Sequence record: MK524176.1
Length of the DNA: 64,000 nucleotides
Origin: Escherichia phage PHB11
Reading direction: 5' to 3' (one strand)
In this document: piece by piece, positions 11,090 to 42,977 of the stretch
How the letters are laid out: every line of letters starts with the position of its first letter
How positions within the stretch are numbered: the first letter of the stretch is position 1
Translations under genes and position numbers: made by a program
The notes under the pieces: model-generated
Database searches by the model: none
Told to the model about the DNA's origin: nothing
The model's input: only the letters and a program-made list of their open reading frames with translations

Positions 11090-11091
11090 TA

Positions 11092-20838: not shown

Positions 20839-21444
<606 letters not shown>

Positions 21445-21518
21445 TTAGTTGATTGTTAAGTTGTTTGTAAAGAACCCTCAACAGAAGACTCTTTAGAAAC
21501 TTGGTAGATTTTTAACGT

Positions 21519-21793
21519 GGCTACTACCATCCACCCATACCGTGCCACACCACACCGGACTATACCATGCCCAACCCTACTACACCAGACCTTATTAAAA
21601 GACCCTCTTAAAAGACCTTTTAAAAAGGTAAGTCTCATTTTAATGTAGTTGAGACTAACTACCCATACCTTACCGCACCGGACATTACCGGACCGCACAT
21701 CACCGCACCAAACCAAACATCACATTACCTGACCTCACCGCGCCTTACCATACCTCACTTAAAAACCCCTCTTAAAGATTCTTAAGTGATGCT
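21519..21793. repeat. Non-coding pentamer-periodic element E2 (copy 2 of 2)
   Basis: Starts GGCTACTACCATCC; NNACC pentamer runs (TTACC GCACC GGACA TTACC GGACC GCACA TCACC GCACC AAACC ...); same blocks as E1 but order A-B-...-C. Confidence 0.7.
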
Positions 21794-21821
21794 GGTGAGT
21801 ACCCGTTGGTTTATGCTGCTC

Positions 21822-21849
21822 AGTATACTCACCAAATTTTCTATGTCAA
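21822..21849 (-). promoter_or_regulatory. Sigma70-like promoter just downstream of the ligase stop, reading into E2 and the cassette
   Basis: On the - strand: TTGACA, 16 bp spacer, TATACT. Confidence 0.45.
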
Positions 21850-21855
21850 CAACTT

Positions 21856-22959
21856 TTATTCATAATCTCGTATAACGAGGCCAACAGGGAACTGTAAAGA
21901 ACCTTTACGAGTCATCTTCTGGAACTGAACCGTCAAAGGTTTCCCGATAAACTCTTCAGGATGTTCAGCAAGATACTGTTTCTTCTCATGAGTAGTCTTC
22001 CATGAGACATCTACAAAGACGTTAGGAAGAGTCTCTACAACGAACTTGCCATGACCACGCTTATCAGTCTTTACACCAGTCACTTTAAACTCTTCAGTGT
22101 GCATCTTCTTGTGCTTAATCAAGAAGTATGAACGGTGACAACACTCATAGAAGGAGTCTTCAGAGATTGAACGGTACATTGCACCTTCAAACTTGGCTTC
22201 AACCCACTTATCATGAGCTTCATCAAACTCTTCCCAAGAATTTACACGACGAGACTTAACAGGAACAACTTTACAGCCGTCTCTAAAGTCATTCAATGGT
22301 GAAGTCTCAATAATATCTCTACGCTCAGGCCACGTCTTAGTACTGTCACAGATATCATACCAGTAAAACTTGAGCAAGTGTCTGTCAGGATTGTCTTCAT
22401 TTTTAATCATGGAGACGATATCTTCTAAGTCCCACCCATGAGCATAAATCTCTCCATCAAATTCATCAACATCTTTGTGGAGCCTTAACATTGCCATAAT
22501 GTCAGGTATTAGTTCAGTAGGGATTTTATAAACAGTATTCTCACGAGAATATGCTGTAAACACACTACCAATACTCAAGTGTCTTGAAATCCTACAACGT
22601 ACACCATCAAGCTTCGGTTGAGCATCAGCAGGGAACTTCAGATACTTTGCATGACTAACCTTTGCAGCATCATGAGCAAGCTGTACACCTACCTTCTCAG
22701 TATTCTGTGCAGACTCTTTTGTGTAAGCATAGCCTTTGCGGTCAACTTGCTTTTTATACTTAGCAGCAACTTCAAAGAGAGCTTGCTGTTCAGCATTACG
22801 CTCATTCTTTTTACCGATGTTTTTAGGTTCTGCTGTATACTCTTCAAACATCATCTTGCCATTTTCTTTACCGTAGGTTGTAATAACTTTGTCACCTACA
22901 GCAACGCATGACCAGACGTTAAAAGAGCCGTCTTTATTTTGTTTGTACAGAATTGTCAT
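21856..22959 (-). CDS. ATP-dependent DNA ligase
   Basis: KxDG adenylation motif in ...AQPKLDGVRCRIS...; size (367 aa) typical of T7-type ligases. Confidence 0.75.
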   Translation of the reverse strand: MTILYKQNKDGSFNVWSCVAVGDKVITTYGKENGKMMFEEYTAEPKNIGKKNERNAEQQALFEVAAKYKKQVDRKGYAYTKESAQNTEKVGVQLAHDAAKVSHAKYLKFPADAQPKLDGVRCRISRHLSIGSVFTAYSRENTVYKIPTELIPDIMAMLRLHKDVDEFDGEIYAHGWDLEDIVSMIKNEDNPDRHLLKFYWYDICDSTKTWPERRDIIETSPLNDFRDGCKVVPVKSRRVNSWEEFDEAHDKWVEAKFEGAMYRSISEDSFYECCHRSYFLIKHKKMHTEEFKVTGVKTDKRGHGKFVVETLPNVFVDVSWKTTHEKKQYLAEHPEEFIGKPLTVQFQKMTRKGSLQFPVGLVIRDYE

Positions 22960-23162
22960 TTTCTCTTACCACCAATTTCTACGTCAATAACTTGAACATC
23001 ACCAGCAACATCAAACTTATGAATGATGCTTTCCACAGTGTAAGTCCAACCTTCGATGCGAACCAACTCACCTTCTCGTGGGACGATTGGGTTACGTTGA
23101 GCTACCGTTGTAGTGGAGTGAACAACATCATAACGGTAGATATAGTTTACTAAGACTTGCAT
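22956..23162 (-). CDS. Hypothetical small protein
   Basis: 68 aa ORF coupled to the ligase gene. Confidence 0.35.
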   Translation of the reverse strand: MQVLVNYIYRYDVVHSTTTVAQRNPIVPREGELVRIEGWTYTVESIIHKFDVAGDVQVIDVEIGGKRK

Positions 23163-23171
23163 ATCTTCACC

Positions 23172-23378
23172 TTAAAAGAATAAGTCAGATGCTTTTGGGT
23201 TTGTCTGTTCACGATAATCTAACTCTCTGTATGTTTTCAGATAGTGGGTAATTTGTGCAGGCAATTCATGGCTTTTAACATCTGAACGTAGTAGTTGCCA
23301 ATCAAAACCTTTACCGACTCTCCCATATAAACTAAATAATTTTACTTTGCTTTTCATTTTGGTATCCCCAATACTCAA
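23172..23378 (-). CDS. Hypothetical small protein
   Basis: 68 aa ORF. Confidence 0.3.
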   Translation of the reverse strand: MSIGDTKMKSKVKLFSLYGRVGKGFDWQLLRSDVKSHELPAQITHYLKTYRELDYREQTNPKASDLFF

Positions 23379-23587
23379 AAGTCAATACTGATACGTTCAC
23401 CCTTAAGAACACCTGTACGGTCTCTTGCAATCTTACCGTCAACGATAAGGATATGCGCGACCTTTAAAGCCTCACGATTAAAACCTTTTACGAACTTACT
23501 AGGCATCACCACAATAAGCATCTCTTGAATCAACTCTGGAGTGTAGCAATTATCGTGAAGTTGCTGAATAACGTCTGAAAGTGTCAT
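23375..23587 (-). CDS. Hypothetical small protein
   Basis: 70 aa ORF. Confidence 0.35.
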   Translation of the reverse strand: MTLSDVIQQLHDNCYTPELIQEMLIVVMPSKFVKGFNREALKVAHILIVDGKIARDRTGVLKGERISIDF

Positions 23588-23638
23588 ATAGCCTCCTATA
23601 TAAGATATTGTATAAGGTACTCTTCCATGAGCACCTTG

Positions 23639-24154
23639 TCAACTTAGTTTTGCAAACTCTCCGTGGAGTTTTATCGCAGCTTCACAGTAAGCTTTATGGG
23701 CCTCTTCTTCTGTTGTGTACGTCCCGATATGTATAGTCTTACCATTATGGCTAATCTGGGCTTTCCACTTACCAGACTTACTTCTACTTGTACCTTTTAA
23801 GTTTTTTGATGTTCTAGGTTGCCTCCTATTAGACATGTTCTGTTCTTTTGTGGCCTCTCTAAGATTGTCCCAAGCATTATTCAAACCGTTCCCGTCTTTG
23901 TGGTCAATATGATTGTCAGGCCACTTACCTGTCATCCAGAACCAAGCAATTCGGTGATTGCCTGTCCTGTATCCTAAAATCTGGGTTTGCATATACACAC
24001 CAGACCTTGTGCGCTTGATTGTACCAGCCTGTCTTCCAATCACCACCCTACTGCTATGTGGAGGTCTGCCAATCCAAGTCAAGACCCCTGTTTCGGGGTC
24101 GTAGTCTAACCAAGATTTTAACTGTTCATGTGTGAATCCACAATCTCTCATCAA
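23639..24154 (-). CDS. HNH homing endonuclease with AP2 DNA-binding domain
   Basis: HNH_3-type motif HIDHKDGNGLNNAWDNLREAT and AP2-like block GKWKAQISHNGKTIHIGTYTTEEEAHKAY; 4 nt overlap with the DNA polymerase gene. Confidence 0.7.
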   Translation of the reverse strand: MMRDCGFTHEQLKSWLDYDPETGVLTWIGRPPHSSRVVIGRQAGTIKRTRSGVYMQTQILGYRTGNHRIAWFWMTGKWPDNHIDHKDGNGLNNAWDNLREATKEQNMSNRRQPRTSKNLKGTSRSKSGKWKAQISHNGKTIHIGTYTTEEEAHKAYCEAAIKLHGEFAKLS

Positions 24155-26850
24155 TGTACCTCATACCACGATTTACCAACCTTACCAGTACCTGTAACAA
24201 GTGTTTCTTTCTTTAGTCCTAAGTTTTTAGAAGCTTGTCCATAATACCAATCAGTGACAGCTTTCACCTCTGCCGTCATACTTTCTGGGCATTCCCAACT
24301 CGTCTCATCGTGATAGGAGCACAATAAACGAGCACCTATAGCTGGTTTGCGACCGTTTAACTTCATCAAACCTTCGTCAATCATACGACGACAAGCGAGG
24401 TTAATTGCTTCATTCTGAATCTGGCTTTCCGAACCCATGAGCAAATAATTCAATAACTTATGTGGAGATTTACACCACAACCAAGCTCCAGCAACCTTTA
24501 CAAAACCCCCTTTAGAGATTGCAGCAGTCTTACCAAACACCTCTTCAAGTGCCTTTTTAGTCGCTTTGTAGTCAGCTTCCAAGTCATCTAGTAGCTTCTT
24601 AATCTTAGGCAAACGGATAAAGTAAGTCTGTTTAGTCAGTGCACCTTCCTGAGTAGTTGCAGCTTTAATTGTCTTAGCAAACTTCTCATCACCTGCACCA
24701 AACAGTAGTGCATAGATACCATTCTTAGCTTTCTTACGACCCTTGCTAATCTCATGAAGAAGGTTCTCATCCTGAGTAGCTCGACAAGTCAAGATATCCT
24801 GCTCATCATTCAAGCTAAAGTAAATACTATTCAGTGTGTGTGCATCAGTCCCTGAATAGACAACGTAAAGGTCATTCTCAGAGTCATAACGCAGATACTT
24901 GTCAACTTCTGGGTTAAGGTACTCATCAAAATGTTTGCAGTAATAGCGTCCATCTTCTTGACGAATAAACTCAATCTCTTCTTTACCTTGCGTTACCGCT
25001 TTGGTGAAGTCTTTGTCACCCATAAAGTTACAAAGGAGAACTAGCTGGGCTGAGTTCATGTCTACAGAGACAACGTTAGTACCTTCTTCACAAATCCACA
25101 CTGCCCTCATTGGCTCACCGTAAACAGCAGCACCAGAAGGTACGTTTACAATACCATACTGAGTCATACGTCCAGTAGAAGTACCAAACACCATTGCACC
25201 AGCACTAAGGCGACCATCAGGACGAATCTGGTTCAACCAACCTTTTTCATCATCTTTTGAGTTCTCAATAGTTCTGCGTCGGTGCATCAAAGTATAGTAT
25301 TTAGCAATCTTCTGTCCAAGCTCACCTTCAATCGTATCATAAGATGATTCAGTAAGTTTTGGTGAAGTACGGATTAAGCAAGGCTCAAGCAAATCTGTGT
25401 ACTTCTTCACAGACCAGTTATGCTCAATGTACTGGACACCTTCGTGTTCAACATAACTCAAGCCACATCGTTCAACCATCTCCTGCCACTTAGGATGCTT
25501 TGTAATCATCTTTTTGTTGTCTTTGAAACGACAAACTTTGACAGGACGACCGTCAGAGTCTTTCTTGTAGTTCCAGTCATCTGGAATCCAACCAACTGAT
25601 TTCAAGTAATCTTTAACAACTGCTACCTGAGTCATACGAGAAACTTCGAACTCAATTGGTGTATATGGTGCATCAATCAAACCTGTGTAGCGACTTGACT
25701 CAAGCTCAAAGTGGTTAACGACATGGCTGTTATAGTACTTCACAGTTTTAACTGTTTTTACTGGCTTCCAGTCTTTGCACTTCTTACCAATCTTTGCATT
25801 CAACTCATTGCAAATTGCACGAGCATCCTTCATTGCTACAAAACCTTCCTTGTACTCTTCACCAGTTACAGAGTTGGTTGGTGTATAGCAATTCCGCTTT
25901 TCAATGTTAAAAATCTTTGTAGTTGGCTTACCAAATGGCTTGATTTCGTATGTCTGCATCTCACCGTTACGTACCTGTTGACGATACTTTGTCTTAGGGT
26001 ACTTGGTAATTCTCTTCAGTCCATCTGCATGACCGAATGCTTCAACATACTCATTCCAAGCTTTTGCAAACTCTTCTCCAGTGACTTTACCTTTGGTCTT
26101 AATAGTTGGAGGAAGATGTGGTTCAACCTCTGAAGCAAGCTCATTAGTCAACTTGTCAAGTTCCTTTACATGGAACTCCATAAGCTCTTTATCAGCTTTC
26201 CAACCATTGATAGCTTGTTGACTCATCCAGAAAGATGTTTCTTTAGCTCGCATATAGGTTTCATAGGTATCTATGCCACACTTCTTTAGCTTGAGATATT
26301 CATTATCCAGTGCACGTTTAGTTTTGGCGTTAATACGGATATCTTCTACAACACGAGTGAAGATTTCTGCATTCCACACACCCCAATGTTCAATCTCTGG
26401 TTTACGTACACCAACACGAGCACCCCATGCTGCCAAGCCATGAGCACCTTTATAGCCCTTTGGAGTTGGTCTATCCATCCACTGAACACGAGACTGGATA
26501 AGAGAATCCTGAAAGAAATTACTCCACGGCTTACACTTTGGATTATCAAAGTTCCACAAATCAGGTGCAATGTGATTGAAAACCCACCAGTCATATCCCA
26601 GACCATTATGGATGCAAAGTCGTTTTGCCTTTAACGCAAACTCAACACCTTCACGCAAGCCACCCTTAATGTACTTGGTATACTTGTGACCGAGGATAGG
26701 CTCATCTGTAAAGACCCATACAGGTGGCTCTTCATCGTCAGATTTATAGTCTGCGAAAGCCATTACGTGCACTTTAGTGAACTCAAGGAGTAAACCATCA
26801 GTTTCTGTATCACCAACTAAATGTAAGTTTTTAAAATCTACGTTTTCCAT
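24151..26850 (-). CDS. DNA polymerase, family A (T7 gp5-like) with 3'-5' exonuclease domain
   Basis: Exo I VGDTETDG; motif A DMNSAQLVLL; motif B RKKAKNGIYALLFGAG; motif C SYHDE; start set at the Met preceded by GAGGGAG SD (ORF track begins at 26880). Confidence 0.85.
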   Translation of the reverse strand: MENVDFKNLHLVGDTETDGLLLEFTKVHVMAFADYKSDDEEPPVWVFTDEPILGHKYTKYIKGGLREGVEFALKAKRLCIHNGLGYDWWVFNHIAPDLWNFDNPKCKPWSNFFQDSLIQSRVQWMDRPTPKGYKGAHGLAAWGARVGVRKPEIEHWGVWNAEIFTRVVEDIRINAKTKRALDNEYLKLKKCGIDTYETYMRAKETSFWMSQQAINGWKADKELMEFHVKELDKLTNELASEVEPHLPPTIKTKGKVTGEEFAKAWNEYVEAFGHADGLKRITKYPKTKYRQQVRNGEMQTYEIKPFGKPTTKIFNIEKRNCYTPTNSVTGEEYKEGFVAMKDARAICNELNAKIGKKCKDWKPVKTVKTVKYYNSHVVNHFELESSRYTGLIDAPYTPIEFEVSRMTQVAVVKDYLKSVGWIPDDWNYKKDSDGRPVKVCRFKDNKKMITKHPKWQEMVERCGLSYVEHEGVQYIEHNWSVKKYTDLLEPCLIRTSPKLTESSYDTIEGELGQKIAKYYTLMHRRRTIENSKDDEKGWLNQIRPDGRLSAGAMVFGTSTGRMTQYGIVNVPSGAAVYGEPMRAVWICEEGTNVVSVDMNSAQLVLLCNFMGDKDFTKAVTQGKEEIEFIRQEDGRYYCKHFDEYLNPEVDKYLRYDSENDLYVVYSGTDAHTLNSIYFSLNDEQDILTCRATQDENLLHEISKGRKKAKNGIYALLFGAGDEKFAKTIKAATTQEGALTKQTYFIRLPKIKKLLDDLEADYKATKKALEEVFGKTAAISKGGFVKVAGAWLWCKSPHKLLNYLLMGSESQIQNEAINLACRRMIDEGLMKLNGRKPAIGARLLCSYHDETSWECPESMTAEVKAVTDWYYGQASKNLGLKKETLVTGTGKVGKSWYEVH

Positions 26851-26910
26851 TTTTACTCCCTCTAAAATCATTAACCCCATACATTACTGCAAAAAATTAT
26901 AAAAAGCAAG

Positions 26911-26940
26911 TTGACAATGTACTTGACAAGGTGTTAATCT
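26911..26940 (+). promoter_or_regulatory. Candidate rightward promoter(s) in the divergent pol / 27108 intergenic region
   Basis: Two TTGACA hexamers (26911-26916, 26923-26928) with only weak -10 candidates (TTAATC/TAATCT); a perfect TATAAT on the - strand at 26896-26901. Confidence 0.3.
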
Positions 26941-27107
26941 TTGCGAAGTGGGTTTTTACTTAAAAGGTTACTTAACAGTTTAACTATACAGATACTTTAA
27001 AACTCTTAAAAGATTATTTAATAGCTTTTAAAAAGCTTTAAAGTATAACGTATAGAATACGTTAAGATAAAAGATTAAAACTTAATAGTTACTTAAAAGA
27101 GGCTTAC

Positions 27108-27530
27108 ATGCAGAAAATGTTTGTTCACCCAGACATAGCTGACTTTGTTAGAGCTTTGCAGAAGTTGGAAGAACTTGACATTGCTGCTCAACGGGAATAT
27201 GCTCACCATCACAGGAGAATGGTTGATATACAACATGAAATAGAGTTGTCTGAAAACTATGAAGATGACTTAAAATGCTCTGTGTTTGAGCATATGAAAG
27301 ATGTTGCTACAGCGAGACGTAAAGCTAAAGACACAGTTGCTTTACTAGATTCTCTTAAAAAGAGGTTGCAAAGTGGTACAGACCTGTGTAATCTAGCGTC
27401 ACTGATTAACGATGTTGAAACTTCTTGGGATAGGCATTACTATCCACGTTCTGAAAAGACACTTGACTTTTCTTCATCTGAAAACTTAAAATGTTCTAGA
27501 AAGAAACTTAACCAACTGAGAGAGAAATAA
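27108..27530 (+). CDS. Hypothetical protein
   Basis: 140 aa ORF, first gene of the rightward operon. Confidence 0.4.
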   Translation: MQKMFVHPDIADFVRALQKLEELDIAAQREYAHHHRRMVDIQHEIELSENYEDDLKCSVFEHMKDVATARRKAKDTVALLDSLKKRLQSGTDLCNLASLINDVETSWDRHYYPRSEKTLDFSSSENLKCSRKKLNQLREK

Positions 27531-27531
27531 T

Positions 27532-28344
27532 ATGAATACTACTGTAGACCAGATGCTTGAAGAAAAAGGTATTGACGAAGCATTCTTAATCAATGCCGTA
27601 GAAAGCATGGCTATGATTCTTCGTGGAAACAACTACACAGAACAGTTTATGCCTGCAAGCTATAACTTGCCTAAAGACAAGTCTGATAACGGTGCTTTTG
27701 CAGAACAGGTTAATATGATGCTGTGTGATAAAACACTTGCTTTAGCATCTATCGTTGTAGGTGTTGATGCTCTTGCAGAGTTCATTTTCTATGAGATGCA
27801 GAAAAATGACTATATTGCCATGACCTTTGAAGAAAAAGACTCGCTACTGCTCTTAGGTTATGATGAGCTAGTTGACCTGTTAATCTCGTCAACGAGTGCT
27901 GTTATGGCTGCTCTTGAGAAGCGAATGGAAGAGAAGCTGTCACGGTATGAAAAACTTGATTGGGGTGTAGAAGAGTTAAACCCACGAATCAAAGAGATTA
28001 TCCAGCAAACTAAAGACTCTTTAGCAGAAGCCGTGAAAGATGATTCTGTAGCTGATGTAGAACCACTACAGGTTAAGGTTGCTCTGATGATTCCTGCTAT
28101 CTCTACAATGATGAATATCGTTGCACTAATCCAACTTTCTCAGATGTTGGGTGTAACCATTGAGTTCGTTGAGGAGATGACTGGTGGTGTCAGTATGCAA
28201 GCAATTAATGATGTTTTGGTAAACATTGGCGCTTCAATCATTGAAGAGAAGCTTCGCATTAACTTTGGTGACGATTTTGTGAAGCAAGTCTCAGATATGG
28301 CTGAAAAAGAGCAATCACAGATTACTAGTGACCAACTGCACTAA
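27532..28344 (+). CDS. Hypothetical acidic protein
   Basis: 270 aa ORF starting 2 nt after the upstream stop. Confidence 0.4.
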   Translation: MNTTVDQMLEEKGIDEAFLINAVESMAMILRGNNYTEQFMPASYNLPKDKSDNGAFAEQVNMMLCDKTLALASIVVGVDALAEFIFYEMQKNDYIAMTFEEKDSLLLLGYDELVDLLISSTSAVMAALEKRMEEKLSRYEKLDWGVEELNPRIKEIIQQTKDSLAEAVKDDSVADVEPLQVKVALMIPAISTMMNIVALIQLSQMLGVTIEFVEEMTGGVSMQAINDVLVNIGASIIEEKLRINFGDDFVKQVSDMAEKEQSQITSDQLH

Positions 28345-28361
28345 GTCTTTATAAATCTTAC

Positions 28362-28387
28362 AAGCCTCCTTAGTTGGGGGCTTTTTA
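28362..28387 (+). terminator. Intrinsic terminator
   Basis: AAGCCTCC-N6-GGGGGCTT hairpin followed by TTTTT. Confidence 0.5.
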
Positions 28388-28405
28388 GTAATTAAGGGAG
28401 ATAAA

Positions 28406-29149
28406 ATGAGTAATATTATTGCATTTACTGGAAAGGCACGTTCTGGAAAAGACACCTCATGTTCTATTGTTAAGAATATCTTAGAAGATGAGTATGGCTA
28501 CAATGTTGCAGTAATGGCCTATGCAGACAATCTTAAGCTATCTGCATCAAAGATATTTGACTTGACATGGAATGACCTGTACGGTGAAACTAAAGAGACT
28601 CCACAGGTCTTTGATTTATCATACTCTGAACTTATGACTAAAGTTACGGAAGCTATGGAGTTCACCTTCAGAGATGAACGTTACCATATGGACTTTAAGC
28701 TTATGTCAGAGTTAACCGGACGATTAATCATGGAACTTAAGAAGGTTGCTAAACCGACTCTATTGACACGTCTGGGATTTAGCAAAAAGTATAAATTCTC
28801 ATCAAGACAAATTCAACAGATTTGGGGCACTGAAGTAATCCGTAAAGTTATGGGTGACAAGTTCTGGTCTAAAGACCTTGAAAAAAGAATGGTAAACTTC
28901 TTTGACGTTTGCTCACTTAGGAATCAAGAAGGTGTTGTTTTAATCAGTGACTTAAGGTTTGACTCTGAAGCTGAGTGGCTGAGCAGATTTGCACACCAAA
29001 CTATTGAAGTAAAAAGAGACAATGTGGACAAGGTTTCATCACATGTTTCAGAAAATGGAATTTCTACCAAATATGCGCGTGACATTATCCATAATAATGG
29101 TACTCTTGAAGACCTTGAAAGCAAGCTAAGAGCTATCCTGAAAATTTAA
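28406..29149 (+). CDS. Deoxynucleoside monophosphate kinase (T4 gp1-like)
   Basis: P-loop FTGKARSGKDT and C-terminal HNNGTLEDLESKL resembling T4 dNMP kinase. Confidence 0.6.
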   Translation: MSNIIAFTGKARSGKDTSCSIVKNILEDEYGYNVAVMAYADNLKLSASKIFDLTWNDLYGETKETPQVFDLSYSELMTKVTEAMEFTFRDERYHMDFKLMSELTGRLIMELKKVAKPTLLTRLGFSKKYKFSSRQIQQIWGTEVIRKVMGDKFWSKDLEKRMVNFFDVCSLRNQEGVVLISDLRFDSEAEWLSRFAHQTIEVKRDNVDKVSSHVSENGISTKYARDIIHNNGTLEDLESKLRAILKI

Positions 29150-29157
29150 AAGAGAGA

Positions 29158-29358
29158 ATGAAGATGAGAGTAAAAGATAATTTTAAAGTTATTGACCATC
29201 GTTTAGTGGAACTCTCATCTCTTTCCAATGAGGTAATGATTGAACGTCTTAAGAGAGTTGAATCACGAAGGAAAGAGATTGCAGATGAAATTCATGAACT
29301 GGACAAGATTGAAAACGGATTGAAGGCAGAACTACAACGAAGAGGTGCTAATGTCTAA
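29158..29358 (+). CDS. Hypothetical coiled-coil protein
   Basis: 66 aa ORF. Confidence 0.35.
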   Translation: MKMRVKDNFKVIDHRLVELSSLSNEVMIERLKRVESRRKEIADEIHELDKIENGLKAELQRRGANV

Positions 29359-31336
29359 AGGTCGTAAATTGAAAGAGGCTGGTCAGTTTATTGGTCATTG
29401 TGCATGTCCACGTTGTGGTTCATCAGATGCTGGTTCAATCTACCATCATGACGATGATTCTTATTCGATGACTTGCTTTAGCTGTAACAAAGGTTTCCCA
29501 GAGTGGGATTTTGATAAAGGACAAATCGTGAGCACTTATTCTACTGGTTCAGATAATAAAAACCGTACTTTCCGTGGAATGGATTTAGACGATGTAAAAG
29601 AAAACCTAGAAGCAATGGACTTGAAAGACAGGAAGATTCCTGCAAAAGTTCTTGAACGCTTAGGTATCAAGGTTGACATTGACAGTGACGGCGAAATTGA
29701 CGCACATTTCTATCCAACTTACAAACGTAATGAAGATGGTAAGCTAGAGCACGTCGGTTATCGTGTACGTCACCGTTACCCAGAAGACCACCCAAAAGAA
29801 CATCTACGCGGTAAGTTAAAAGACTTTTCAGGTGGTGTTGGGGACATTAAAGGTGAACTGGCAATGTTCGGTTCATGGATTGCTCCAGAAGGCGGTAACC
29901 GTCTATTCATTTGGGAAGGTGAGATGGAATGTGCCACAGCAATCTACATGACTTCTCTGGCGATTAAAGATAAGTCTCGTCGTAAGAATTACTGTCACGT
30001 ATCTGTTCCATCAGGTGCAAACATTAAGTCTATCAAAGACAACTATCAGTACATTACATCATTTGATGAGATTTACTTGTGCTTTGATAACGATGAAGCA
30101 GGTGCTAAAGCTACCAAAGAAGCTGCTGGTATCCTACCTATTGAAAAGGTTCGTTTATTCCAGTATCCAGAAGGTGTAAAAGACCTTAACGAATGGTGGA
30201 CAAAGTTCTATAAAGAGAAAGACACAGTTCTGGAAGGATTTAAACAGCGTATCTACAACGCACCTCGTTACTGCCCTGCTGGTATCAAGAACTTCGCAGA
30301 TGGTTTTGAGGCAATGAAGAATCGTGGTCAGATTCCATTGATTCCTTTCCCAGAATCTTTCGGGGATTTGAACAGGTTGACTTATGGTGGTTACGGTTTA
30401 GGTGAGATTACAACTCTGGCAGCACCATCTTCAGTAGGTAAATCAGCATATACCCGTGAAATGATTTACACTGCTTGGAAGGAAACCGATTATAATATTG
30501 GTGTAATTCCTGTAGAAGATACCTATGAAGAGTTGATGGAGATGCTCTGTGCAATTCATCTAAGCAAGCAGATTTCTGAGATTCCTTATGATGAACGTGA
30601 TTGGGATGAATTGAAGGAAGCACACGCAGAACTATCTAAAGGTCGTCGTATCCATATCGTTGACCATCAAGGGGCAATTGACCAAGATAACCTACTGGAA
30701 TTTGTTGACTATCTTGTTAACAGTTTAGACTGTAAGATTATTATTCTTGACCCTATCACGTTAGCTCTGTCACGTTCAGATACGGATGAAGAGGAAGTTT
30801 TGTCTGAGCTATTGCGTCGTTGCAAACGCTACCAGTATGCACAGGTAAACGTATGTCACGTTCGTAAGAGTGCAGGTGGTCAGAAAGCTAACTCTGAAGG
30901 TGGAGATATCTCTGAAGAGGATATTAAGGGTTCTGGTGCATACTTCCAGATTTCCATGAACAACATTCTGTTAATGCGTAACAAGGTTGACCCAGACCCT
31001 GTTAAGAAAAACTTGACAAAAATCAAGTTAACTAAGTGTCGTCGTCATGGTAAGTCAACAGGTATTGCTGGTCATACTTGGTACAATCCAGATACAGGAC
31101 GTCTTATCAAAGCTTCTGGATGTGGTGTTGACATTGATGGTGCAGCAGAAAATATTCGTCAACAGTTTGGCATTGGTGAAGCTGAAGACCATTATGATGA
31201 CTCTTTACCTCATTATGAGGATGAAGTGTTTGACCGTGAGACTGGTGAAGTCTATACTGAAGAACAGCGTCAAAGCTCAACGATTCCGCCTGTATTAAGT
31301 GAGGATGCAGATGACTGCCCGTTTGAAACTGAGTGA
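29345..31336 (+). CDS. Bifunctional DNA primase-helicase (T7 gp4-like)
   Basis: N-terminal zinc ribbon CPRCGSS...CFSCNKG; Walker A APSSVGKS in a DnaB-like C-terminal domain. Confidence 0.8.
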   Translation: MLMSKGRKLKEAGQFIGHCACPRCGSSDAGSIYHHDDDSYSMTCFSCNKGFPEWDFDKGQIVSTYSTGSDNKNRTFRGMDLDDVKENLEAMDLKDRKIPAKVLERLGIKVDIDSDGEIDAHFYPTYKRNEDGKLEHVGYRVRHRYPEDHPKEHLRGKLKDFSGGVGDIKGELAMFGSWIAPEGGNRLFIWEGEMECATAIYMTSLAIKDKSRRKNYCHVSVPSGANIKSIKDNYQYITSFDEIYLCFDNDEAGAKATKEAAGILPIEKVRLFQYPEGVKDLNEWWTKFYKEKDTVLEGFKQRIYNAPRYCPAGIKNFADGFEAMKNRGQIPLIPFPESFGDLNRLTYGGYGLGEITTLAAPSSVGKSAYTREMIYTAWKETDYNIGVIPVEDTYEELMEMLCAIHLSKQISEIPYDERDWDELKEAHAELSKGRRIHIVDHQGAIDQDNLLEFVDYLVNSLDCKIIILDPITLALSRSDTDEEEVLSELLRRCKRYQYAQVNVCHVRKSAGGQKANSEGGDISEEDIKGSGAYFQISMNNILLMRNKVDPDPVKKNLTKIKLTKCRRHGKSTGIAGHTWYNPDTGRLIKASGCGVDIDGAAENIRQQFGIGEAEDHYDDSLPHYEDEVFDRETGEVYTEEQRQSSTIPPVLSEDADDCPFETE

Positions 31337-31592
31337 TAGTTATAAAAGAGAGGGGTTCATACCCTTCTTTGAAGAAAAAAGTTTAAATAAATTTCAGGAA
31401 GAGTGTTTGACAAAGATTGATAGGTTCTATAGAATGCTCCTCATGAAATGCGATGGTGAGGTTGCTATAAAAGAAGACTCCTACCAAAGCACGATTACAG
31501 TCATCATTACACTGCCTCAGCATAATATTAGTTGGCTGTTTATAATTAAAGAAAATGTGTTTGAATATCAAGTATATCGGAGAATATCATGA
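31299..31592 (+). CDS. Hypothetical protein
   Basis: 97 aa ORF overlapping the primase-helicase 3' end. Confidence 0.3.
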   Translation: MRMQMTARLKLSDSYKREGFIPFFEEKSLNKFQEECLTKIDRFYRMLLMKCDGEVAIKEDSYQSTITVIITLPQHNISWLFIIKENVFEYQVYRRIS

Positions 31593-31738
31593 AACACTCT
31601 AAAGCATTTGAAAAAGTTTTTGGGGATTCCTTAAAAGCCACTGCTGGCAAACCAGCAAAATACTATGAAGAGAAGCGTGTAAGAACTGGAAAAACTGCAC
31701 GCAAAGCAGCTTCTAAAGATAAGCACAACTTCCAGTAA
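31589..31738 (+). CDS. Small basic protein (not in ORF track, 49 aa)
   Basis: ATG at 31589 preceded by GGAGAA; translation MKHSKAFEKVFGDSLKATAGKPAKYYEEKRVRTGKTARKAASKDKHNFQ. Confidence 0.3.
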   Translation: MKHSKAFEKVFGDSLKATAGKPAKYYEEKRVRTGKTARKAASKDKHNFQ

Positions 31739-31745
31739 TTAATGT

Positions 31746-31774
31746 TTGACAATAGAGTATCAACAAATTAGAAT
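31746..31774 (+). promoter_or_regulatory. Near-consensus sigma70-type promoter upstream of the SSB-like gene
   Basis: TTGACA, 17 bp spacer, TAGAAT. Confidence 0.55.
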
Positions 31775-31810
31775 TGGTACTCTTCATAAATTGAGATAGA
31801 GGTTTAAATA

Positions 31811-32668
31811 ATGTCTAAAGTTGTTAAAATGAAAGCTCCGGTAGAGAAGTACAATGGTACTGAACGTCAAACTCTGCGTTACCTGCTGAAAGATGTTTGG
31901 TTTTATTACCTGAACACTTCACCACGTCCGGGAAAAGGTAAGTCCATTGATAAGAAATTCCCAGGAAAAGACTGCAACTACAGTGTTTCAATTCTGGCAG
32001 AAGACGGTAACAAGCTGTTTAAAGAATTTACTAAGTCTAAGAAAAACCCAGAAGGTTGGGATAAAGTTACTACTGAAGCGGTTGATGCAGACGACTTCGA
32101 AGAGAAGTTTGGTTGCAAACCACCATTTGAAGCAGACACTTACTACATCTTGAAAGTAAGTCGTGCAGCAGCTTATAAAGATGGTGCTGTGTGGACAGCT
32201 AAACAGTCATTCCCTGTAATGCTGATTGAAGAAGTAAATGGTAAGCGTGTAGCTGTTAAACAGCCGATGAAGAAAATCAAAGCTCAAGCATCTGATAAGC
32301 ATGAAGATGACAAGAACTATGATGTAATTCATCCAGATATTGCAGTTGGTAACGGTTCTTTTGGTAGTGTGATTCTTTCTACTCACTTCTACACCTTTGA
32401 GAACAATGTTCTGACAAAACCTATTCAGGAACAGTTTATCATTGATACTCTTGTACCTTACACTGGTGGTAACGGTGCTAATGGCGAACCTGAACTGGAT
32501 GAAGACGAACTGGCTATGCTTGGTCTTGATGGTGTTGAAGATAACGGTGAAATCACTGAAGAAGATGCAAAAGACCACAAACCTTCGAATGATTCTGATG
32601 ATGGTGACGATGAAGACTTGCCAGACCCAGATGACGAAGAAGATGAAGACTTCGATACAGAAGACTAA
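31811..32668 (+). CDS. Single-stranded DNA-binding protein (T7 gp2.5-like) candidate
   Basis: Highly acidic C-terminal tail ...DDEDLPDPDDEEDEDFDTED with aromatic residue; location in the replication module. Confidence 0.5.
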   Translation: MSKVVKMKAPVEKYNGTERQTLRYLLKDVWFYYLNTSPRPGKGKSIDKKFPGKDCNYSVSILAEDGNKLFKEFTKSKKNPEGWDKVTTEAVDADDFEEKFGCKPPFEADTYYILKVSRAAAYKDGAVWTAKQSFPVMLIEEVNGKRVAVKQPMKKIKAQASDKHEDDKNYDVIHPDIAVGNGSFGSVILSTHFYTFENNVLTKPIQEQFIIDTLVPYTGGNGANGEPELDEDELAMLGLDGVEDNGEITEEDAKDHKPSNDSDDGDDEDLPDPDDEEDEDFDTED

Positions 32669-32686
32669 TCTCTAAAAGTTACTTTA

Positions 32687-32715
32687 AAGCCCTGTACTTA
32701 GTATGGGGCTTTTTC
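32687..32715 (+). terminator. Intrinsic terminator
   Basis: AAGCCC-N13-GGGCTT hairpin followed by TTTTT. Confidence 0.5.
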
Positions 32716-32730
32716 ATATGGAGAGTCACA

Positions 32731-33771
32731 ATGGAGAAGTATACGCTAACAAAACTTCCCGATTCAGTTACACATGTCTTTATTGACTCTGACAGTATTG
32801 CCTATAAAGGTGCTTGTGTAGTTGAGAAAGCAAAATATAAATATGTCAATAAACTCACAGCAGAAGAATCTGAACCATTTGATAATGCAAAAGATGCCGC
32901 AAGATGGTTAGCAGACCAGAGAATCCTTGTAGAAGAGCTTGGCCTAGCATTTGATGAAGATGAATGGGAAAGACAGACTTGGAAAGAAGCTAAGAGTGAA
33001 AAAGAAGCTATCATGGCTACTCAGCAGGTTCTTCAGGAATGGCTTAAGGTTGTTGGTAAAGAAAGAACTTGGGTAGGTTACTTAACAGAGAAAGGTGTGC
33101 ATAAGCATAAAGACGTTAAAGGTCTTGAGCACCAATATCAAGGTAACCGTAAAGATGCTGTCACACCAACACACTTAGTTGCTTGTCGTGAATATCTCCT
33201 GTCAAGACCAGAGTTCAAACTCTTAAAGGGTGGCTTCGAAGCCGACTCAATCGTTATTGCTAAAGCTGAAAAGATGGGTAAGAAAGCTGCTCTTATGAGT
33301 ATTGACAAAGACCTTCGACAAGCTGAAGGTACTTATTGTATTGATATGACTTATGAAAAGTCACCACTAATTTTTATTGCTGATAATAATGTTGGTGATA
33401 TCTGGGATTGCCCTATCAAATCAAAACCAAAAGCTGCAAAAACAGTTGGTGTAGGTTTTAAATTCTTGTGTTATCAGGCTGTTGCTGGAGATAATGCAGA
33501 CAACTACTTCGGACTTAAAGGTGCTGGAAAAGTAGCTGTGATGAATGCTTTAGATGGTAAAGAGACTTATAAAGAGTGTCTTGATGCTATCTATGAACTC
33601 TATGCTAAAAAAGAGTCTTATACCTATGTATCATGGGATGGACAGACTGTTACCAAAACACCATTAGAGTTAATGGAACAGCATTTCTGGATAGCATATC
33701 AAGAGAGAAATCCAAAAGATAATTTCTCTTTTAAGAAATATAATTGGGAGCCGTGTATGAATGAAGATTAA
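32731..33771 (+). CDS. 5'-3' exonuclease (T7 gp6-like)
   Basis: Blocks VFIDSDSIAYKGA, MSIDKDLRQ and GDNADNYFGLKGAGKV matching the T7 gene 6 exonuclease pattern. Confidence 0.6.
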   Translation: MEKYTLTKLPDSVTHVFIDSDSIAYKGACVVEKAKYKYVNKLTAEESEPFDNAKDAARWLADQRILVEELGLAFDEDEWERQTWKEAKSEKEAIMATQQVLQEWLKVVGKERTWVGYLTEKGVHKHKDVKGLEHQYQGNRKDAVTPTHLVACREYLLSRPEFKLLKGGFEADSIVIAKAEKMGKKAALMSIDKDLRQAEGTYCIDMTYEKSPLIFIADNNVGDIWDCPIKSKPKAAKTVGVGFKFLCYQAVAGDNADNYFGLKGAGKVAVMNALDGKETYKECLDAIYELYAKKESYTYVSWDGQTVTKTPLELMEQHFWIAYQERNPKDNFSFKKYNWEPCMNED

Positions 33772-34258
33772 AGGATTTGGCAATTGCCCTACCTATGGTC
33801 ATTGGGTATCTTTATGTGGGGAAGTTGACCCCACTAAACATTTTGGTTTTGTCTATTTAGTACACTGTAAGAAGACCGGACAATATTATATCGGAAAGAA
33901 ACAGCTTAATAGTGTGACCAAAAGAAAAGTTGCTGGCAAGACTCGGAAGAAGGTAGTCACTAAGGAGAGTGATTGGGTGACTTATGAGACTTCTTCTGAG
34001 TATATTAAAAAAGATATTGAGAGCTTTGGAAAAGAATTTTTTGACTTTTACATTATCCAAACCTACTACACGAAAGGTGGTCTAGTTTATGGTGAAGCAA
34101 ACCTCCAACATAAATTCGATGTAATGACAAAAAGGATTGACTCTAAGCTCAGACTCTTCTACAATGCCAATATTGCAGCAATTAAGTTTATCACTAAAGA
34201 AACTTATGAAGATGCTGAAAAAAGAATCCATAAGGTAATGAAAGCAAATTGTGCTTGA
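33761..34258 (+). CDS. GIY-YIG-like (T5orf172-type) domain protein, possible nuclease
   Basis: N-terminal FGFVYLVHCKKTGQYYIGKK resembles the GIY...YIG motif pair; remainder unassigned. Confidence 0.35.
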   Translation: MKIKGFGNCPTYGHWVSLCGEVDPTKHFGFVYLVHCKKTGQYYIGKKQLNSVTKRKVAGKTRKKVVTKESDWVTYETSSEYIKKDIESFGKEFFDFYIIQTYYTKGGLVYGEANLQHKFDVMTKRIDSKLRLFYNANIAAIKFITKETYEDAEKRIHKVMKANCA

Positions 34259-34264
34259 TAACTA

Positions 34265-34510
34265 TTGAGAGAGAATAAAATGTTTAACAAAAGTAAAGCT
34301 GTGAGTCATGTAGCAAAGGTTGACAGCAAGATTGAAGAACTTGAGCGCATTCTTGCAAATGCCAGAGAGTCAATAATTAAAGAAGTTGAAGCTGTTGAAT
34401 CTCAAATGCAGCACCTAATGCTTAAACGTCAAGAGTTACGTGAGCATCTGGAATATATTGAAACACGAGAGCTAAAAGTTAACAGATTTTTAAGGAGTCC
34501 AAATGTTTAA
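34265..34510 (+). CDS. Hypothetical coiled-coil protein
   Basis: 81 aa ORF. Confidence 0.35.
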   Translation: MRENKMFNKSKAVSHVAKVDSKIEELERILANARESIIKEVEAVESQMQHLMLKRQELREHLEYIETRELKVNRFLRSPNV

Positions 34511-35942: not shown

Positions 35943-38177
35943 ATGATTAAGACAATTAAAAAATCAAACGGTACAGTAGTAAGCTTTGACCCAGAAAGAC
36001 TGAATAAGTGGGCATCATGGGCAGATAAGCGTGGAATTATCTGGTCAGAAGTCACTATGGAAGCCATGAAACGTGTCTATGAGGGTTGCACTACAAAAGA
36101 GATGCACCAAGCCATGATTGATGTTTGTGTTGATAAGCAAACTCAAGAGTACTCAGACATGGCTGGACGGCTACTTCTGGGAATTATCTACAAAGAAGCC
36201 TTTGGAGGCTTTACTAAGGTTCCTACGCTGGTTACCTTCGTTAAAAATATGGAGAGAGCAGGACTTTGGGAGAAGATGGACTATTCTCAGGAAGAGCTTG
36301 AATATCTGCAAGGGTACATTGTGCACTCAAAAGATATCTCTTATGGTTATGCAGTCCTGAAACAGTTCAGAGACAAGTATGGTATTCGTGATATCAAAAC
36401 GGGAAGACTTTTTGAGTCACCACAATTTATGTTTATGGGTATGGCTATGAAAGCCTTTGAGAAGCAACCAAAGCACCGTAGACTGCAAGATGTTATCAAG
36501 CTGTACACTTACCTATCTGACCTGAAGATTAATGCTCCTACACCTTATCTGAATGGTTTAAGAGCTACTAAATCGGGTTATGCGTCATGCTGTTTGATTA
36601 AGGCGAATGATACCGCTGAATCACTCGGTATTGCTGCAAAGGTTGCTTATGATATGACTACAAAGCAAGCTGGTATCGGGATGCTGATGGAGACTCGTAC
36701 TATTGGTGATGGTATCCGTCAAAATACTATTGAGCACATGGGTAAACTACCTTATTACAAGCTTGTACGTTCATCTGTAGAGGCAAACAAACAGAAGAGT
36801 CGTGGTGGTTCAGCTAACAACTTCTACACTGCTCTAGACCCACAGATTGAAGATTTACTGCGTTTGAAGCACCCTACAACGGTTCCTTCGAAACGTATTA
36901 ACGAGATGGACTACTCATTCGGCACAAATGATTATTTCTGGCAGTGTGTTCAATATGATACAGACTGGTTGCTTTTCTCTTACAAGGATGCACCAAAGCT
37001 CTATGACATGTTCTACACAGCATCTGCTGATGAGTTTGCTATGGCAGTTGGTCACGCAGTACATTCAGGTGTTAAGCACAGACGGGTGAAGGCTCGTGAA
37101 ATTGCTAAACTGTTTATCCAGCAGCGTTATGCAACAGGCCGTGTGTACCCATTCTTCACGAATAATGCAAACACACATACACCATTTAAAGAGCCTTTGA
37201 AGATGTCAAACCTTTGTATGGAAATTGTGTTGCCAGTGTACGGCTTTGAGAAAGAGACAGACCTTTACAGAGATGATGCTGTGAAAGAGGATGGTGAGGT
37301 AGCTCTTTGCTTCCTAGCTAGTTTGGTTGCAGGGAGAATTTCGGAAGATGAATACGCTGACGTTGCTTATTATGCTCTTGCAATGGTTGACTCCGTTATT
37401 GACCTTATGGATTATCCGTATCCGTCGATGCGCAACCATGTTCAGAAGCGTCGTTCTGTTGGTATTGGCCTTACAAATGTGGCTCATTACCTTGCAAAAA
37501 ATTACGTGAACTACTCTTCAAGAGCAGGTAAGACAAAGCTTCATGAGCTTGCTGAAATGCACTCTTACTACTTACACGAAGCTTCTTTAAGACTTGCTAA
37601 AGAACGTGGTGTACCTGAGTATATGCAGTTCACTAAGTATCCTGAAGGTTGGGTTCCTCCGAAGACAGCTAACAGGAAGATTGATGAGAAGCATGATGCA
37701 AAACTTCGTTATGATTGGGATGACTTAGCACAACGTATTAAAGAAAATGGTGGAATCCGTAACTCTGTATTAGAAGCTTACATGCCTAATGAGAGTTCTT
37801 CACTGGCAACTAATACGACAAATGGCTTGTATCCAATTCGTGACTTTATTTTAACTAAAAAGTCTGCAACTGGTAACGTACTGTTTATTGTTCCAGATTA
37901 CGAAGAGTTGAAGTATGTCTATGAAATTGCTTGGGATATTGACACCTTTGACCTGATTGATTGTTATGCAATTGTTCAAAAGTTCACTGGTCAAGCTATT
38001 TCTTCAGATTTCTATGTTGACTACGCAAAAGCTAAGAAGGTATCATTGGCTCAAGCTTTGAAGTACATGATTTATGCCAACTCAGTAGGTATGAAAACCA
38101 TGTACTACCTTAACAGTCGCATCGGTGTAGGTAAATCTGCACTACAAGATGCTTATTGCGAGGGTTGTGGTGTTTAG
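35943..38177 (+). CDS. nrdA: Ribonucleotide reductase class I large subunit
   Basis: N-terminal ATP-cone, active-site SNLCMEIVLP, tyrosine pair ...TMYYLN..., C-terminal cysteine pair CEGCGV. Confidence 0.85.
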   Translation: MIKTIKKSNGTVVSFDPERLNKWASWADKRGIIWSEVTMEAMKRVYEGCTTKEMHQAMIDVCVDKQTQEYSDMAGRLLLGIIYKEAFGGFTKVPTLVTFVKNMERAGLWEKMDYSQEELEYLQGYIVHSKDISYGYAVLKQFRDKYGIRDIKTGRLFESPQFMFMGMAMKAFEKQPKHRRLQDVIKLYTYLSDLKINAPTPYLNGLRATKSGYASCCLIKANDTAESLGIAAKVAYDMTTKQAGIGMLMETRTIGDGIRQNTIEHMGKLPYYKLVRSSVEANKQKSRGGSANNFYTALDPQIEDLLRLKHPTTVPSKRINEMDYSFGTNDYFWQCVQYDTDWLLFSYKDAPKLYDMFYTASADEFAMAVGHAVHSGVKHRRVKAREIAKLFIQQRYATGRVYPFFTNNANTHTPFKEPLKMSNLCMEIVLPVYGFEKETDLYRDDAVKEDGEVALCFLASLVAGRISEDEYADVAYYALAMVDSVIDLMDYPYPSMRNHVQKRRSVGIGLTNVAHYLAKNYVNYSSRAGKTKLHELAEMHSYYLHEASLRLAKERGVPEYMQFTKYPEGWVPPKTANRKIDEKHDAKLRYDWDDLAQRIKENGGIRNSVLEAYMPNESSSLATNTTNGLYPIRDFILTKKSATGNVLFIVPDYEELKYVYEIAWDIDTFDLIDCYAIVQKFTGQAISSDFYVDYAKAKKVSLAQALKYMIYANSVGMKTMYYLNSRIGVGKSALQDAYCEGCGV

Positions 38178-38232
38178 TTTTAATAACTATGAGGGTCGTA
38201 AAAGACCCTCTAAAATTAACTTTGGAGAAACT

Positions 38233-38490
38233 ATGAAAGACCTAATAGAAAAACATGAGAGACCAATATACTTGTTCTACAAACCCCGCAAAACATTATA
38301 CTACGTGAGCAGCACAGGCATCATGATAAAGCAGAATGATGACTTATGGGTAACTGGAGCCTCTTACATCTCTACAGCAGATGGTAAAATCTACGCAAGA
38401 CCTTACGAGATGTTCAATGAAGAAAATTGGGAAGTTTTAGACAGAAAACAAGCCTTAGAGATGATAAAGAAAGGAGAAATCACACTATGA
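38233..38490 (+). CDS. Hypothetical protein between nrdA and nrdB
   Basis: ATG at 38233 preceded by GGAGAA; the ORF track start at 38149 overlaps nrdA. Confidence 0.35.
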   Translation: MKDLIEKHERPIYLFYKPRKTLYYVSSTGIMIKQNDDLWVTGASYISTADGKIYARPYEMFNEENWEVLDRKQALEMIKKGEITL

Positions 38491-39560
38491 TTAACCAACA
38501 CCCAATCTTTTTAGGTGGTGAAAGAAAAACATTTGACTCCCTTAATAAACACTACCCAAAAATCTTTGAGCTATACAAACAACAAAAAGCGCAAGACTGG
38601 TCAGAAGATGAGTTCCCTTTTGAACAATCACGTCTTGATTTTGAGAGTGTGCCAGCATCAATGTCAGGTGTAATGCTTGAGATTCTTAAGTGGCAGTGGG
38701 AAGCAGATACCCAAGTTGCTAAGAGTTTAGCGTTTGCCTTTGCACCATTTATCTCTGATGACATTTATGCAACTGCAATTATGAAGCAGTCTGAGATTGA
38801 AAACCTACATGCTCTCACTTACTCGGAGATTGTAAGGCAATGTATTAAAAACCCTGAAACAATCTTAGATGAGATTAACCAGAATATTGCTGTGCAAGAC
38901 CGATTAAAAACTGTGAATCGTGTTCTTGAAGAATTGCTGGACGAAGGTATAAACTATCGGCTGAGTTATGTCCGTGACTCACTTCTGGACAAAGACCCTT
39001 TACACTTCCATAAAGTGATTTTAAAAGGTCTATTTGCAGTGACTGCACTTGAAGGTATATCTTTTATGGCATCCTTTGCGTGTACTTTTGCACTTGATGC
39101 TCAAGATAAATTTCAAGGTATTGCTCAAGCTGTCCAGAAGATTATGCTTGATGAAATCCTTCACACTAAAATTGATATTGAAGTTTTAAAAGAAACTTTA
39201 AGAGATGATGAGTGGCAAAAAGCTTTCCAACAAATTCTTCCAGAGATTAAAGTAATCTTAGATGAAGTAGTTGAAAGTGAAGAGAAATGGTCGTATTATA
39301 TCTTCTCCGAAGGACGTGCTGTAGTTGGGTTAAATACAAAGCTTCTTCATGAGTGGGTTTACTATAATGCTGCCCCACTGTATGATATGTTTGGCATTCC
39401 CAGAGATTTTGTAGCTCCTAAAGAACCACCTTTGAAGTATATGATTAAGAAGATGGAAATTGATAAAGAGCAGAATGCTAATCAGGAGCAACAGAACGGT
39501 GCGTATTTATTGAATACTGTTGTAGATGATTTGAATAGTGGATTTTTAGAGGTTCCTTAA
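38487..39560 (+). CDS. nrdB: Ribonucleotide reductase class I small subunit
   Basis: Di-iron/tyrosyl radical blocks SEIENLHALTYSE and DEILHT; start set at MINQHP (38487, AAAGGAGAAA upstream). Confidence 0.8.
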   Translation: MINQHPIFLGGERKTFDSLNKHYPKIFELYKQQKAQDWSEDEFPFEQSRLDFESVPASMSGVMLEILKWQWEADTQVAKSLAFAFAPFISDDIYATAIMKQSEIENLHALTYSEIVRQCIKNPETILDEINQNIAVQDRLKTVNRVLEELLDEGINYRLSYVRDSLLDKDPLHFHKVILKGLFAVTALEGISFMASFACTFALDAQDKFQGIAQAVQKIMLDEILHTKIDIEVLKETLRDDEWQKAFQQILPEIKVILDEVVESEEKWSYYIFSEGRAVVGLNTKLLHEWVYYNAAPLYDMFGIPRDFVAPKEPPLKYMIKKMEIDKEQNANQEQQNGAYLLNTVVDDLNSGFLEVP

Positions 39561-42942: not shown

Positions 42943-42977
42943 GTAAAACAATTAAATAATATTGGTGAGGTAACTAG

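Follow-up and report, generated by a model that had tools for sequence, protein, structure and literature searches.

How does a phage that carries the genes of a contractile tail come to copy its DNA with proteins of the T7 type? The question is raised by positions 21856-33771 of a 64-kb stretch of the genome of Escherichia phage PHB11 (MK524176.1), which is called the window here. A preliminary description of the same DNA had pointed to a family A DNA polymerase, an ATP-dependent ligase, a fused primase-helicase, a candidate single-stranded DNA-binding protein (SSB) resembling T7 gp2.5, and an exonuclease resembling T7 gp6, all inside a myovirus-type genome. We took gene coordinates and strands from a map of the open reading frames (ORFs) and families from Pfam and PHROG scans, and all five replication genes were found at the places and on the strands expected (Table 1). 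We read the region as the early replication module of a Felixounavirus, a T7-style minimal replisome in a contractile-tailed phage, and put the probability of this reading at about 0.9. A T7-style replisome in a contractile-tailed phage is already known. What is added here is the case for a 285-amino-acid “hypothetical” gene product as the missing T7-style SSB, together with a C-terminal tail motif that it shares with the primase-helicase.

The replication genes form two blocks that diverge at a 227-bp AT-rich intergenic gap, where the sign of the GC skew also flips. This gene orientation agrees with the earlier claim that the set is split over two divergent blocks. The leftward block holds the polymerase, a homing endonuclease, small ORFs, and the ligase, and the rightward block holds two proteins without an assigned function, a deoxynucleotide monophosphate (dNMP) kinase, the primase-helicase, the SSB candidate, and an exonuclease of the flap endonuclease (FEN) family. 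Four of the five replication proteins (ligase, primase-helicase, polymerase, and exonuclease) share PHROGs 114, 239, 17, and 107 with T7 gp1.3, gp4, gp5, and gp6, respectively. T7 proteins for direct comparison were taken from NC_001604, and the placement of the replication proteins relies on best-hit patterns. A T4-type replisome was ruled out, as the polymerase belongs to family A and one protein holds both helicase and primase. The window and T7 have in common five functions, the protein families that carry them out, their domain architectures, and their catalytic motifs, at a sequence identity of only 22-28%.

A megablast search with positions 21856-33771 against 50,697 phage records returned 278 matching records; of these, 228 span 80% or more of the query, nearly all at 90-98% identity. 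The top-listed matches are all Felix O1-like phages of Escherichia and Salmonella, and Shigella and Citrobacter phages are also present among the full 278. By the same program, positions 1-21855 are 95-96% identical to vB_EcoM_Shy and HMD-P10, and positions 39001-64000 are 93-96% identical to EcoM2, SME50, and others. All three stretches are collinear with more than 200 Felixounavirus records at 93-98% identity, and the relatives with an annotation are classed as Caudoviricetes; Ounavirinae; Felixounavirus. On the strength of this identity and collinearity, the window belongs to Felixounavirus (Ounavirinae, Felix O1-like myoviruses), a very densely sampled genus, and represents a variant at the strain or species level. 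It is like Felix O1, vB_SPuM_SP116, vB_EcoM_Shy, and SP3_SHan-2021 in gene order and in its tail, replication, and ribonucleotide reductase (RNR)/NAMPT/rII regions, and it differs from them at the strain or species level, for example in the HNH endonuclease after the polymerase and the small ORFs between ligase and polymerase.

The structural genes are P2/T4-like and the replication genes are T7-like, which at first glance suggests a junction. On that account, the T7-like module would be a recent horizontal acquisition, or the record an assembly chimera of podovirus replication blocks and myovirus structural blocks. We regard this account as effectively refuted. The gene order is identical in the more than 200 independently sequenced genomes just mentioned, and the GC content is uniform over the whole window (0.36-0.42), with no sign of a chimera. 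Furthermore, the same order is found in Kolesnikvirus, Mooglevirus, Hafnia and Pectobacterium phages, and metagenomic relatives. Since the order is kept in these other Ounavirinae at only 44-63% protein identity, the module appears to have been inherited vertically within the subfamily for a long time.

The published record agrees. In the Felix O1 genome paper of 2010, the polymerase is most similar to those of podoviruses PaP3, SP6, K1E, K1-5, and T7, and the primase/helicase to those of T7-like phages; an ATP-dependent ligase, a putative 5'-exonuclease, and both RNR classes are also encoded (PMC3185647). The unusual character that the preliminary description implied for this gene set therefore does not hold, as the set is the standard published content of Felix O1-like myoviruses. 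Our tblastn searches with the polymerase found homologues in PaP3-, SP6-, and K1E-type podoviruses as well as homologues of 27-31% identity in phage genomes of 115-150 kb. Given the latter, family A polymerases are common in phages other than podoviruses, and, taken with the published account, the two sets of homologues make the mosaic a long-known feature of the whole subfamily. More distant lineages with family A polymerases include the rV5-like (Vequintavirinae-type) phages and Vibrio and Aeromonas phages of ~115-140 kb, the last two seen among the polymerase matches. Felix O1-like, PAK_P1/KPP10-like, and rV5-like myoviruses have been grouped as relatives (PMC4309531).

Among the individual proteins, the polymerase has its best PDB matches in T7 gp5 (1e-10), with Taq behind at 1e-3, and BLASTP aligned it with gp5 at 22% identity (E 3e-13). 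The N-terminal DEDD 3'-5' exonuclease is present, with D24/E26 of Exo I aligned to T7 D5/E7. In the polymerase domain, D607 of motif A and R715/K719/Y723 of motif B align with T7 D475 and R518/K522/Y526, and H857-D858-E859 of motif C aligns with the T7 HDE. The C-terminus ends in ...SWYEVH, compared with ...NWAICH in T7, and the histidine at the last residue (T7 His704) is kept in SP116, Shy, and Erwinia M7. The best match, the pairwise alignment, and the conserved catalytic motifs together support the assignment to family A and to the T7 type.

The primase-helicase combines three parts in one polypeptide: a Cys4 zinc finger at the N-terminus, a TOPRIM primase, and a helicase of the RecA/DnaB type at the C-terminus. 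Its best PDB matches are all T7 gp4 (1.3e-40), and it aligns with T7 gp4A at 28% identity across ~590 amino acids (BLASTP, E 3e-45). The four zinc-finger cysteines (CxxC...CxxC), the TOPRIM region, the Walker A GKS, and the arginine finger KCR all fall in register in this alignment, and with the Toprim_2 and DnaB_C domains they make the protein a fused primase-helicase of the T7 type. In Pfam, the exonuclease reached both 5'-3' exonuclease domains (5_3_exonuc) only below threshold, and its identity came from profile and structure comparisons. A 29-sequence profile matched T7 gp6 with 95.8% probability (hhalign, E 7.5e-9) and, among PDB entries, the Taq 5' nuclease domain (2e-8). An AlphaFold2 (AF2) model with a mean predicted local distance difference test (pLDDT) score of 92.7 matched T5 FEN, E. 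coli ExoIX, and mycobacterial FenA in Foldseek. In keeping with the metal-binding clusters of a PIN-like FEN fold, eight carboxylates are invariant (D19, D21, E170, D172, D192, D194, D254, and D257). With the PHROG shared with gp6, the profile match and the FEN fold uphold the description of this exonuclease as gp6-like.

The 285-amino-acid protein encoded between the primase-helicase and exonuclease genes, a position that is kept in every relative examined, is poorly annotated. Among 60 public records that we sampled, 51 label its gene hypothetical or “unknown,” 2 call it a “putative DNA primase/helicase,” and the rest leave it unannotated. In the predicted structure, a core with a gp2.5-type oligonucleotide-binding (OB) fold leads into an acidic, disordered tail. 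When 1.84 billion representatives were searched with a profile of this protein family, 63 proteins were returned, mostly of 200-245 amino acids. The alignment of 48 of these 63 matches the family of the window protein at 99.9% (hhalign, E 1.7e-36), and the same 48-member family matches T7 gp2.5 at 94.7% (E 5.8e-8); 3 of its 48 members match Pfam Enc34_ssDNA-bd or SBB_T7 (PF10991 or PF21265). The sequence link from the SSB candidate to gp2.5 appears only by way of this intermediate family. Residues 218-285 are acidic and of low model confidence, and the tail ends in ...EEDEDFDTED. Its F281 is invariant in 12 homologues, a phenylalanine 4-7 residues from the end. From the fold, the bridged profile homology, and the acidic tail, we conclude that the protein is very probably a gp2.5-like ssDNA-binding and annealing protein, and the earlier suggestion of a gp2.5-like candidate gains from the invariant phenylalanine and the conserved gene position. 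A literature search of incomplete coverage turned up no gp2.5-like SSB assignment for Felix O1-like phages, and the main text of Lopes et al. 2010 (PMC2896510) contains no mention of Felix O1.

As in T7, the helicase and the SSB of the window both have acidic tails, and the two tails have an aromatic motif in common. The acidic tail of the primase-helicase ends in ...DADDCPFETE, and the tail ending ...SEDADDCPFETE is conserved in 7 of 8 relatives. The two proteins share a C-terminal aromatic-x-T-E motif that co-varies from phage to phage across the Ounavirinae. In the window, the primase-helicase ends in PFETE and the SSB in DFDTED; the corresponding pairs are PFETD and DFETDDE in Moogle, GFETE and DFDTEDDEE in relative L010, PFETE and PFETE in L008, GFQTE and GFQTE in Pectobacterium phage Wc4-1, EFQTA and NFETE in L009, and IPFRTE and VPFKTE in Erwinia phage M7. 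The pattern [FWY]-x-T-[ED] terminates 3 of the 543 stop-to-stop segments of at least 40 amino acids in the window, and two of these three are the primase-helicase and the SSB. The motif differs from that of T7, as its aromatic residue lies at about position -4, whereas the T7 counterparts finish in a terminal ...DF (gp4 in ...NDTDF and gp2.5 in ...EDGDF).

Several results weigh against a close T7-type reading of the module and against the SSB assignment within it. T7 Glu480 is a steric gate that excludes ribonucleotides. In the window polymerase, motif A reads VDMNSAQL and a glutamine (near residue 612) stands opposite this glutamate, as it does in all four polymerases aligned with MAFFT (window, SP116, Shy, and Erwinia M7), so that the steric-gate glutamate of the gp5 type is absent. 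The window polymerase is also 200 amino acids longer than that of T7. At the position where T7 binds thioredoxin, its thumb insertion has 168 amino acids, including 29 lysines and arginines, compared with 83 amino acids in T7, and because the insertion is twice the T7 length, a dependence on thioredoxin cannot be assumed from the alignment. The dNMP kinase is of the T5/T4 type (DNMK, phrog_139) and not of the T7 gp1.7 type (phrog_2585).

The ligase departs from T7 as well. It has adenylation and OB domains and a KLDG motif I near residue 116. PF01068 (DNA_ligase_A_M) was matched above its cutoff (5.7e-7), PF14743 (OB_2) just below it (9e-6, 26.0 bits against a cutoff of 28), and phrog_114, the broad PHROG that also contains T7 gp1.3, at 2.4e-95. 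However, there is no pairwise similarity to gp1.3 (BLASTP, E 1.2). The best PDB matches are the ligases of African swine fever virus (ASFV) and Chlorella virus, and T7 ligase is absent from the matches at E<0.1. In Felix O1, the closest non-phage homologues of the ligase are kinetoplastid ligases (PMC3185647). With the ASFV and Chlorella virus enzymes as its closest relatives of solved structure, the ligase is “T7-type” only at the level of small ATP-dependent ligases. The earlier description of it thus stands as far as a small two-domain ATP-dependent ligase in phrog_114 is meant, and falls where it implies specific relatedness to gp1.3.

Transcription signals gave no further help. Within positions 21400-34400, a promoter and terminator scan counted 30 promoter-like and 8 terminator-like sites, and shuffled sequence gave the same result. 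Because the scan did not rise above chance, the divergent-operon layout rests on gene orientation and on the literature. In Felix O1, divergent promoters are assumed between the polymerase gene and its neighbor (genes 96 and 97), and the replication genes are transcribed within 5 minutes after infection (PMC3185647). Unlike T7, Felix O1 has no phage RNA polymerase, and the two divergent blocks are transcribed by the host enzyme (PMC3185647). Finally, the tail motif has one exception among the relatives. The primase-helicase of Hafnia phage vB_HpaM_SarahDanielle (L005, positions 1459-3375) lacks it and ends in ...GNTGEVLS, and no alternative reading frame of that gene brings the motif back; the SSB of this phage ends in ...DEWETN, with tryptophan in place of phenylalanine.

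The remaining points against our reading concern the SSB candidate, for which searches of Pfam, NCBIfam, and PDB sequences gave no match. Its AF2 model was built from 12 sequences and reached a pLDDT of 64, which is moderate confidence, and direct comparison of its family with T7 gp2.5 by hhalign reached just 26%, which is not significant. The family is listed as function unknown in PHROGs, in keeping with the hypothetical labels of public records. An OB-like model of this kind could be an artifact of a shallow alignment, and the protein could be an unrelated acidic one, such as a DNA mimic, a host-takeover factor, or a scaffold. We find this very unlikely. The profile route described above is independent of the model and reaches gp2.5, with bridging family members that match SBB_T7 and Enc34_ssDNA-bd. 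An acidic tail with an invariant aromatic residue, common to SSB and helicase, is a hallmark of gp2.5. Additionally, the gene neighborhood is conserved, and the module shows no second SSB candidate. A gp2.5-like SSB remains the reading that we carry forward.

With the gene identities, the T7 homology, and the shared tail motif observed as above, homology with T7 indicates how the module would work. The primase-helicase would unwind the DNA and prime the lagging strand, and the polymerase would copy both strands. The SSB would coat the lagging-strand template and promote annealing and recombination. The FEN exonuclease would remove primers and supply host-derived nucleotides, and the ligase would seal the nicks. 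In T7, basic patches on gp5/thioredoxin bind the tails of both gp4 and gp2.5, which replace one another there. As the helicase and the SSB of the Ounavirinae carry the same aromatic-x-T-E peptide, their acidic tails probably compete for one docking site too. By analogy with T7, the polymerase would most likely provide this site, perhaps through the enlarged, lysine-rich insertion that stands where T7 has its thioredoxin-binding loop.

The F-x-T-E peptides might instead dock elsewhere, either on the DNA-binding cleft of each other's protein, as a form of auto-inhibition, or on a host factor, or on one of the uncharacterized proteins of the rightward block. The gp2.5 tail of T7 does occupy its own ssDNA-binding cleft, and the two conserved genes of unknown function at the head of the rightward block accompany the module. 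Yet the T7 precedent for both tails is the polymerase complex, and the Ounavirinae polymerase keeps its long, basic thumb insertion at the equivalent position. We therefore consider docking elsewhere unlikely, although clearly less remote than the readings set aside above, and favor docking on the polymerase. Taken further, the reading would have all Ounavirinae encode an unannotated gp2.5-type SSB with a co-evolving, helicase-shared tail, which would be a lineage-specific form of the T7 “tail-switching,” with helicase and SSB in competition for one site on a polymerase that has an enlarged thumb insertion and is possibly thioredoxin-independent. We offer this broader proposal tentatively, as its chances seem to us a little short of even.

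Table 1. Positions of the replication genes and other features in the 64-kb window, with the strand and evidence for each.
Feature	Positions	Strand	Evidence
Tail sheath	1728-3080	+	phrog_205 1e-125, Pfam DUF3383 4.7e-25
Tape measure	4256-6463		
Baseplate W/J/I-type genes	9201-11946		
ATP-dependent DNA ligase, 367 aa	21856-22959	-	PF01068, PF14743, phrog_114
HNH + AP2-domain homing endonuclease	23639-24154	-	HNH_3 1.9e-14, AP2 2e-9, phrog_99 2e-64
Family A DNA polymerase, 909 aa	24151-26880	-	PF00476 1.2e-14, phrog_17
Intergenic gap, presumed early promoter region	26881-27107	.	ORF map, sequence, GC skew
Conserved 140-aa protein, first gene of the + block	27108-27530	+	phrog_4039 (function unknown)
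Conserved, fast-evolving 270-aa protein, second in the + block	27532-28344	+	phrog_4251
Deoxynucleotide monophosphate kinase	28406-29149	+	PF21448 3.8e-23, phrog_139
Fused primase-helicase, 663 aa	29345-31336	+	Toprim_2 + DnaB_C, phrog_239
gp2.5-like SSB candidate, 285 aa	31811-32668	+	phrog_3877 (function unknown)
FEN-family 5'-3' exonuclease, 346 aa	32731-33771	+	phrog_107 2.5e-63
SegE-like GIY-YIG homing endonuclease	33761-34258	+	PF19835 1.4e-27
Class I RNR (NrdAB)	35943-39560		
Class III RNR (NrdDG)	40050-43463		
rIIA	48442-50808		
rIIB	50888-51997		

Outside the replication region, the context given in the preliminary description holds as well. The sheath and baseplate W/J/I genes of a myovirus-like virion module were matched, together with a tape measure and a baseplate hub, as were rIIA and rIIB and the two RNRs of classes I and III. 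These family matches are strong and do not look like chance. The tail fibers (gp37/gp10-like) hold 9 and 4 HxH motifs, compared with ~1.5 and 0.3 expected, and the sheath region matches the tail modules of Felixounavirus at 95-96% identity. In this respect too the window differs from T7, as its virion is that of a myovirus; the morphology itself is taken from the Felix O1 literature (PMC3185647), and our own data on it are the genes. Thymidylate synthase, dihydrofolate reductase (DHFR), phosphoribosyl pyrophosphate (PRPP) synthetase, and nicotinamide phosphoribosyltransferase (NAMPT) are also encoded. No tRNA genes were detected by ARAGORN in the 64-kb window; Felix O1 is reported to have 22, and the tRNA cluster must be situated in the part of the genome beyond the window.

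Two mobile elements border the replication genes. The HNH homing endonuclease gene overlaps the polymerase stop codon, is present in SP116, and is absent in phage Shy. In some other relatives, the polymerase is annotated as two pieces; in one of these, GEC_vB_B1, the match also takes in an “endonuclease VII.” This makes the polymerase locus a likely hotspot for mobile endonucleases, and the HNH endonuclease is a mobile passenger outside the replisome. Directly after the exonuclease gene, the second element bears the name “NAD synthetase” in many public records of Felix O1-like phages, yet it matches the SegE-type GIY-YIG family; the public label appears to be a propagated error.

The first two genes of the rightward block are less well described. 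The 140-amino-acid product of the first has no Pfam or NCBIfam match. Databases call the 270-amino-acid product of the second a “minor tail protein,” yet its gene is the second of the early replication block. This protein is 16-30% identical among Ounavirinae homologues, has no Pfam match, and its family profile finds nothing among PDB entries. We consider the “minor tail protein” label doubtful.

Some further observations concern the SSB gene and its public records. Near-consensus sigma-70-like sites (TTGACA-N17-TAGAAT, 11 of 12 matches) lie at positions 31407-31435 and 31746-31774 on the + strand, the latter directly upstream of the SSB gene; in total, promoter-like sites do not exceed the shuffled frequency. 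A copy of the SSB gene that is 100% identical to that of the window is found in GenBank MG065668.1 (“Campylobacter phage A126,” 43 kb). Campylobacter-labeled records also occur among the Felixounavirus megablast matches, and MG065668.1 is probably a mislabeled or contaminated Felixounavirus sequence.

The window can be filed as Felixounavirus, and the mosaic of T7-like replication genes and myovirus structural genes is the textbook state of its subfamily and no discovery. For annotation there is some practical value, as the public genomes of Felix O1-like phages, which number in the hundreds and include many biocontrol or therapy candidates, list the SSB as hypothetical. Labels to correct are those of the SSB, the GIY-YIG “NAD synthetase,” and the early-gene “minor tail protein.” Beyond annotation, the tail peptide shared by helicase and SSB is a simple and testable way into the coupling of a T7-style replisome in another phage lineage.

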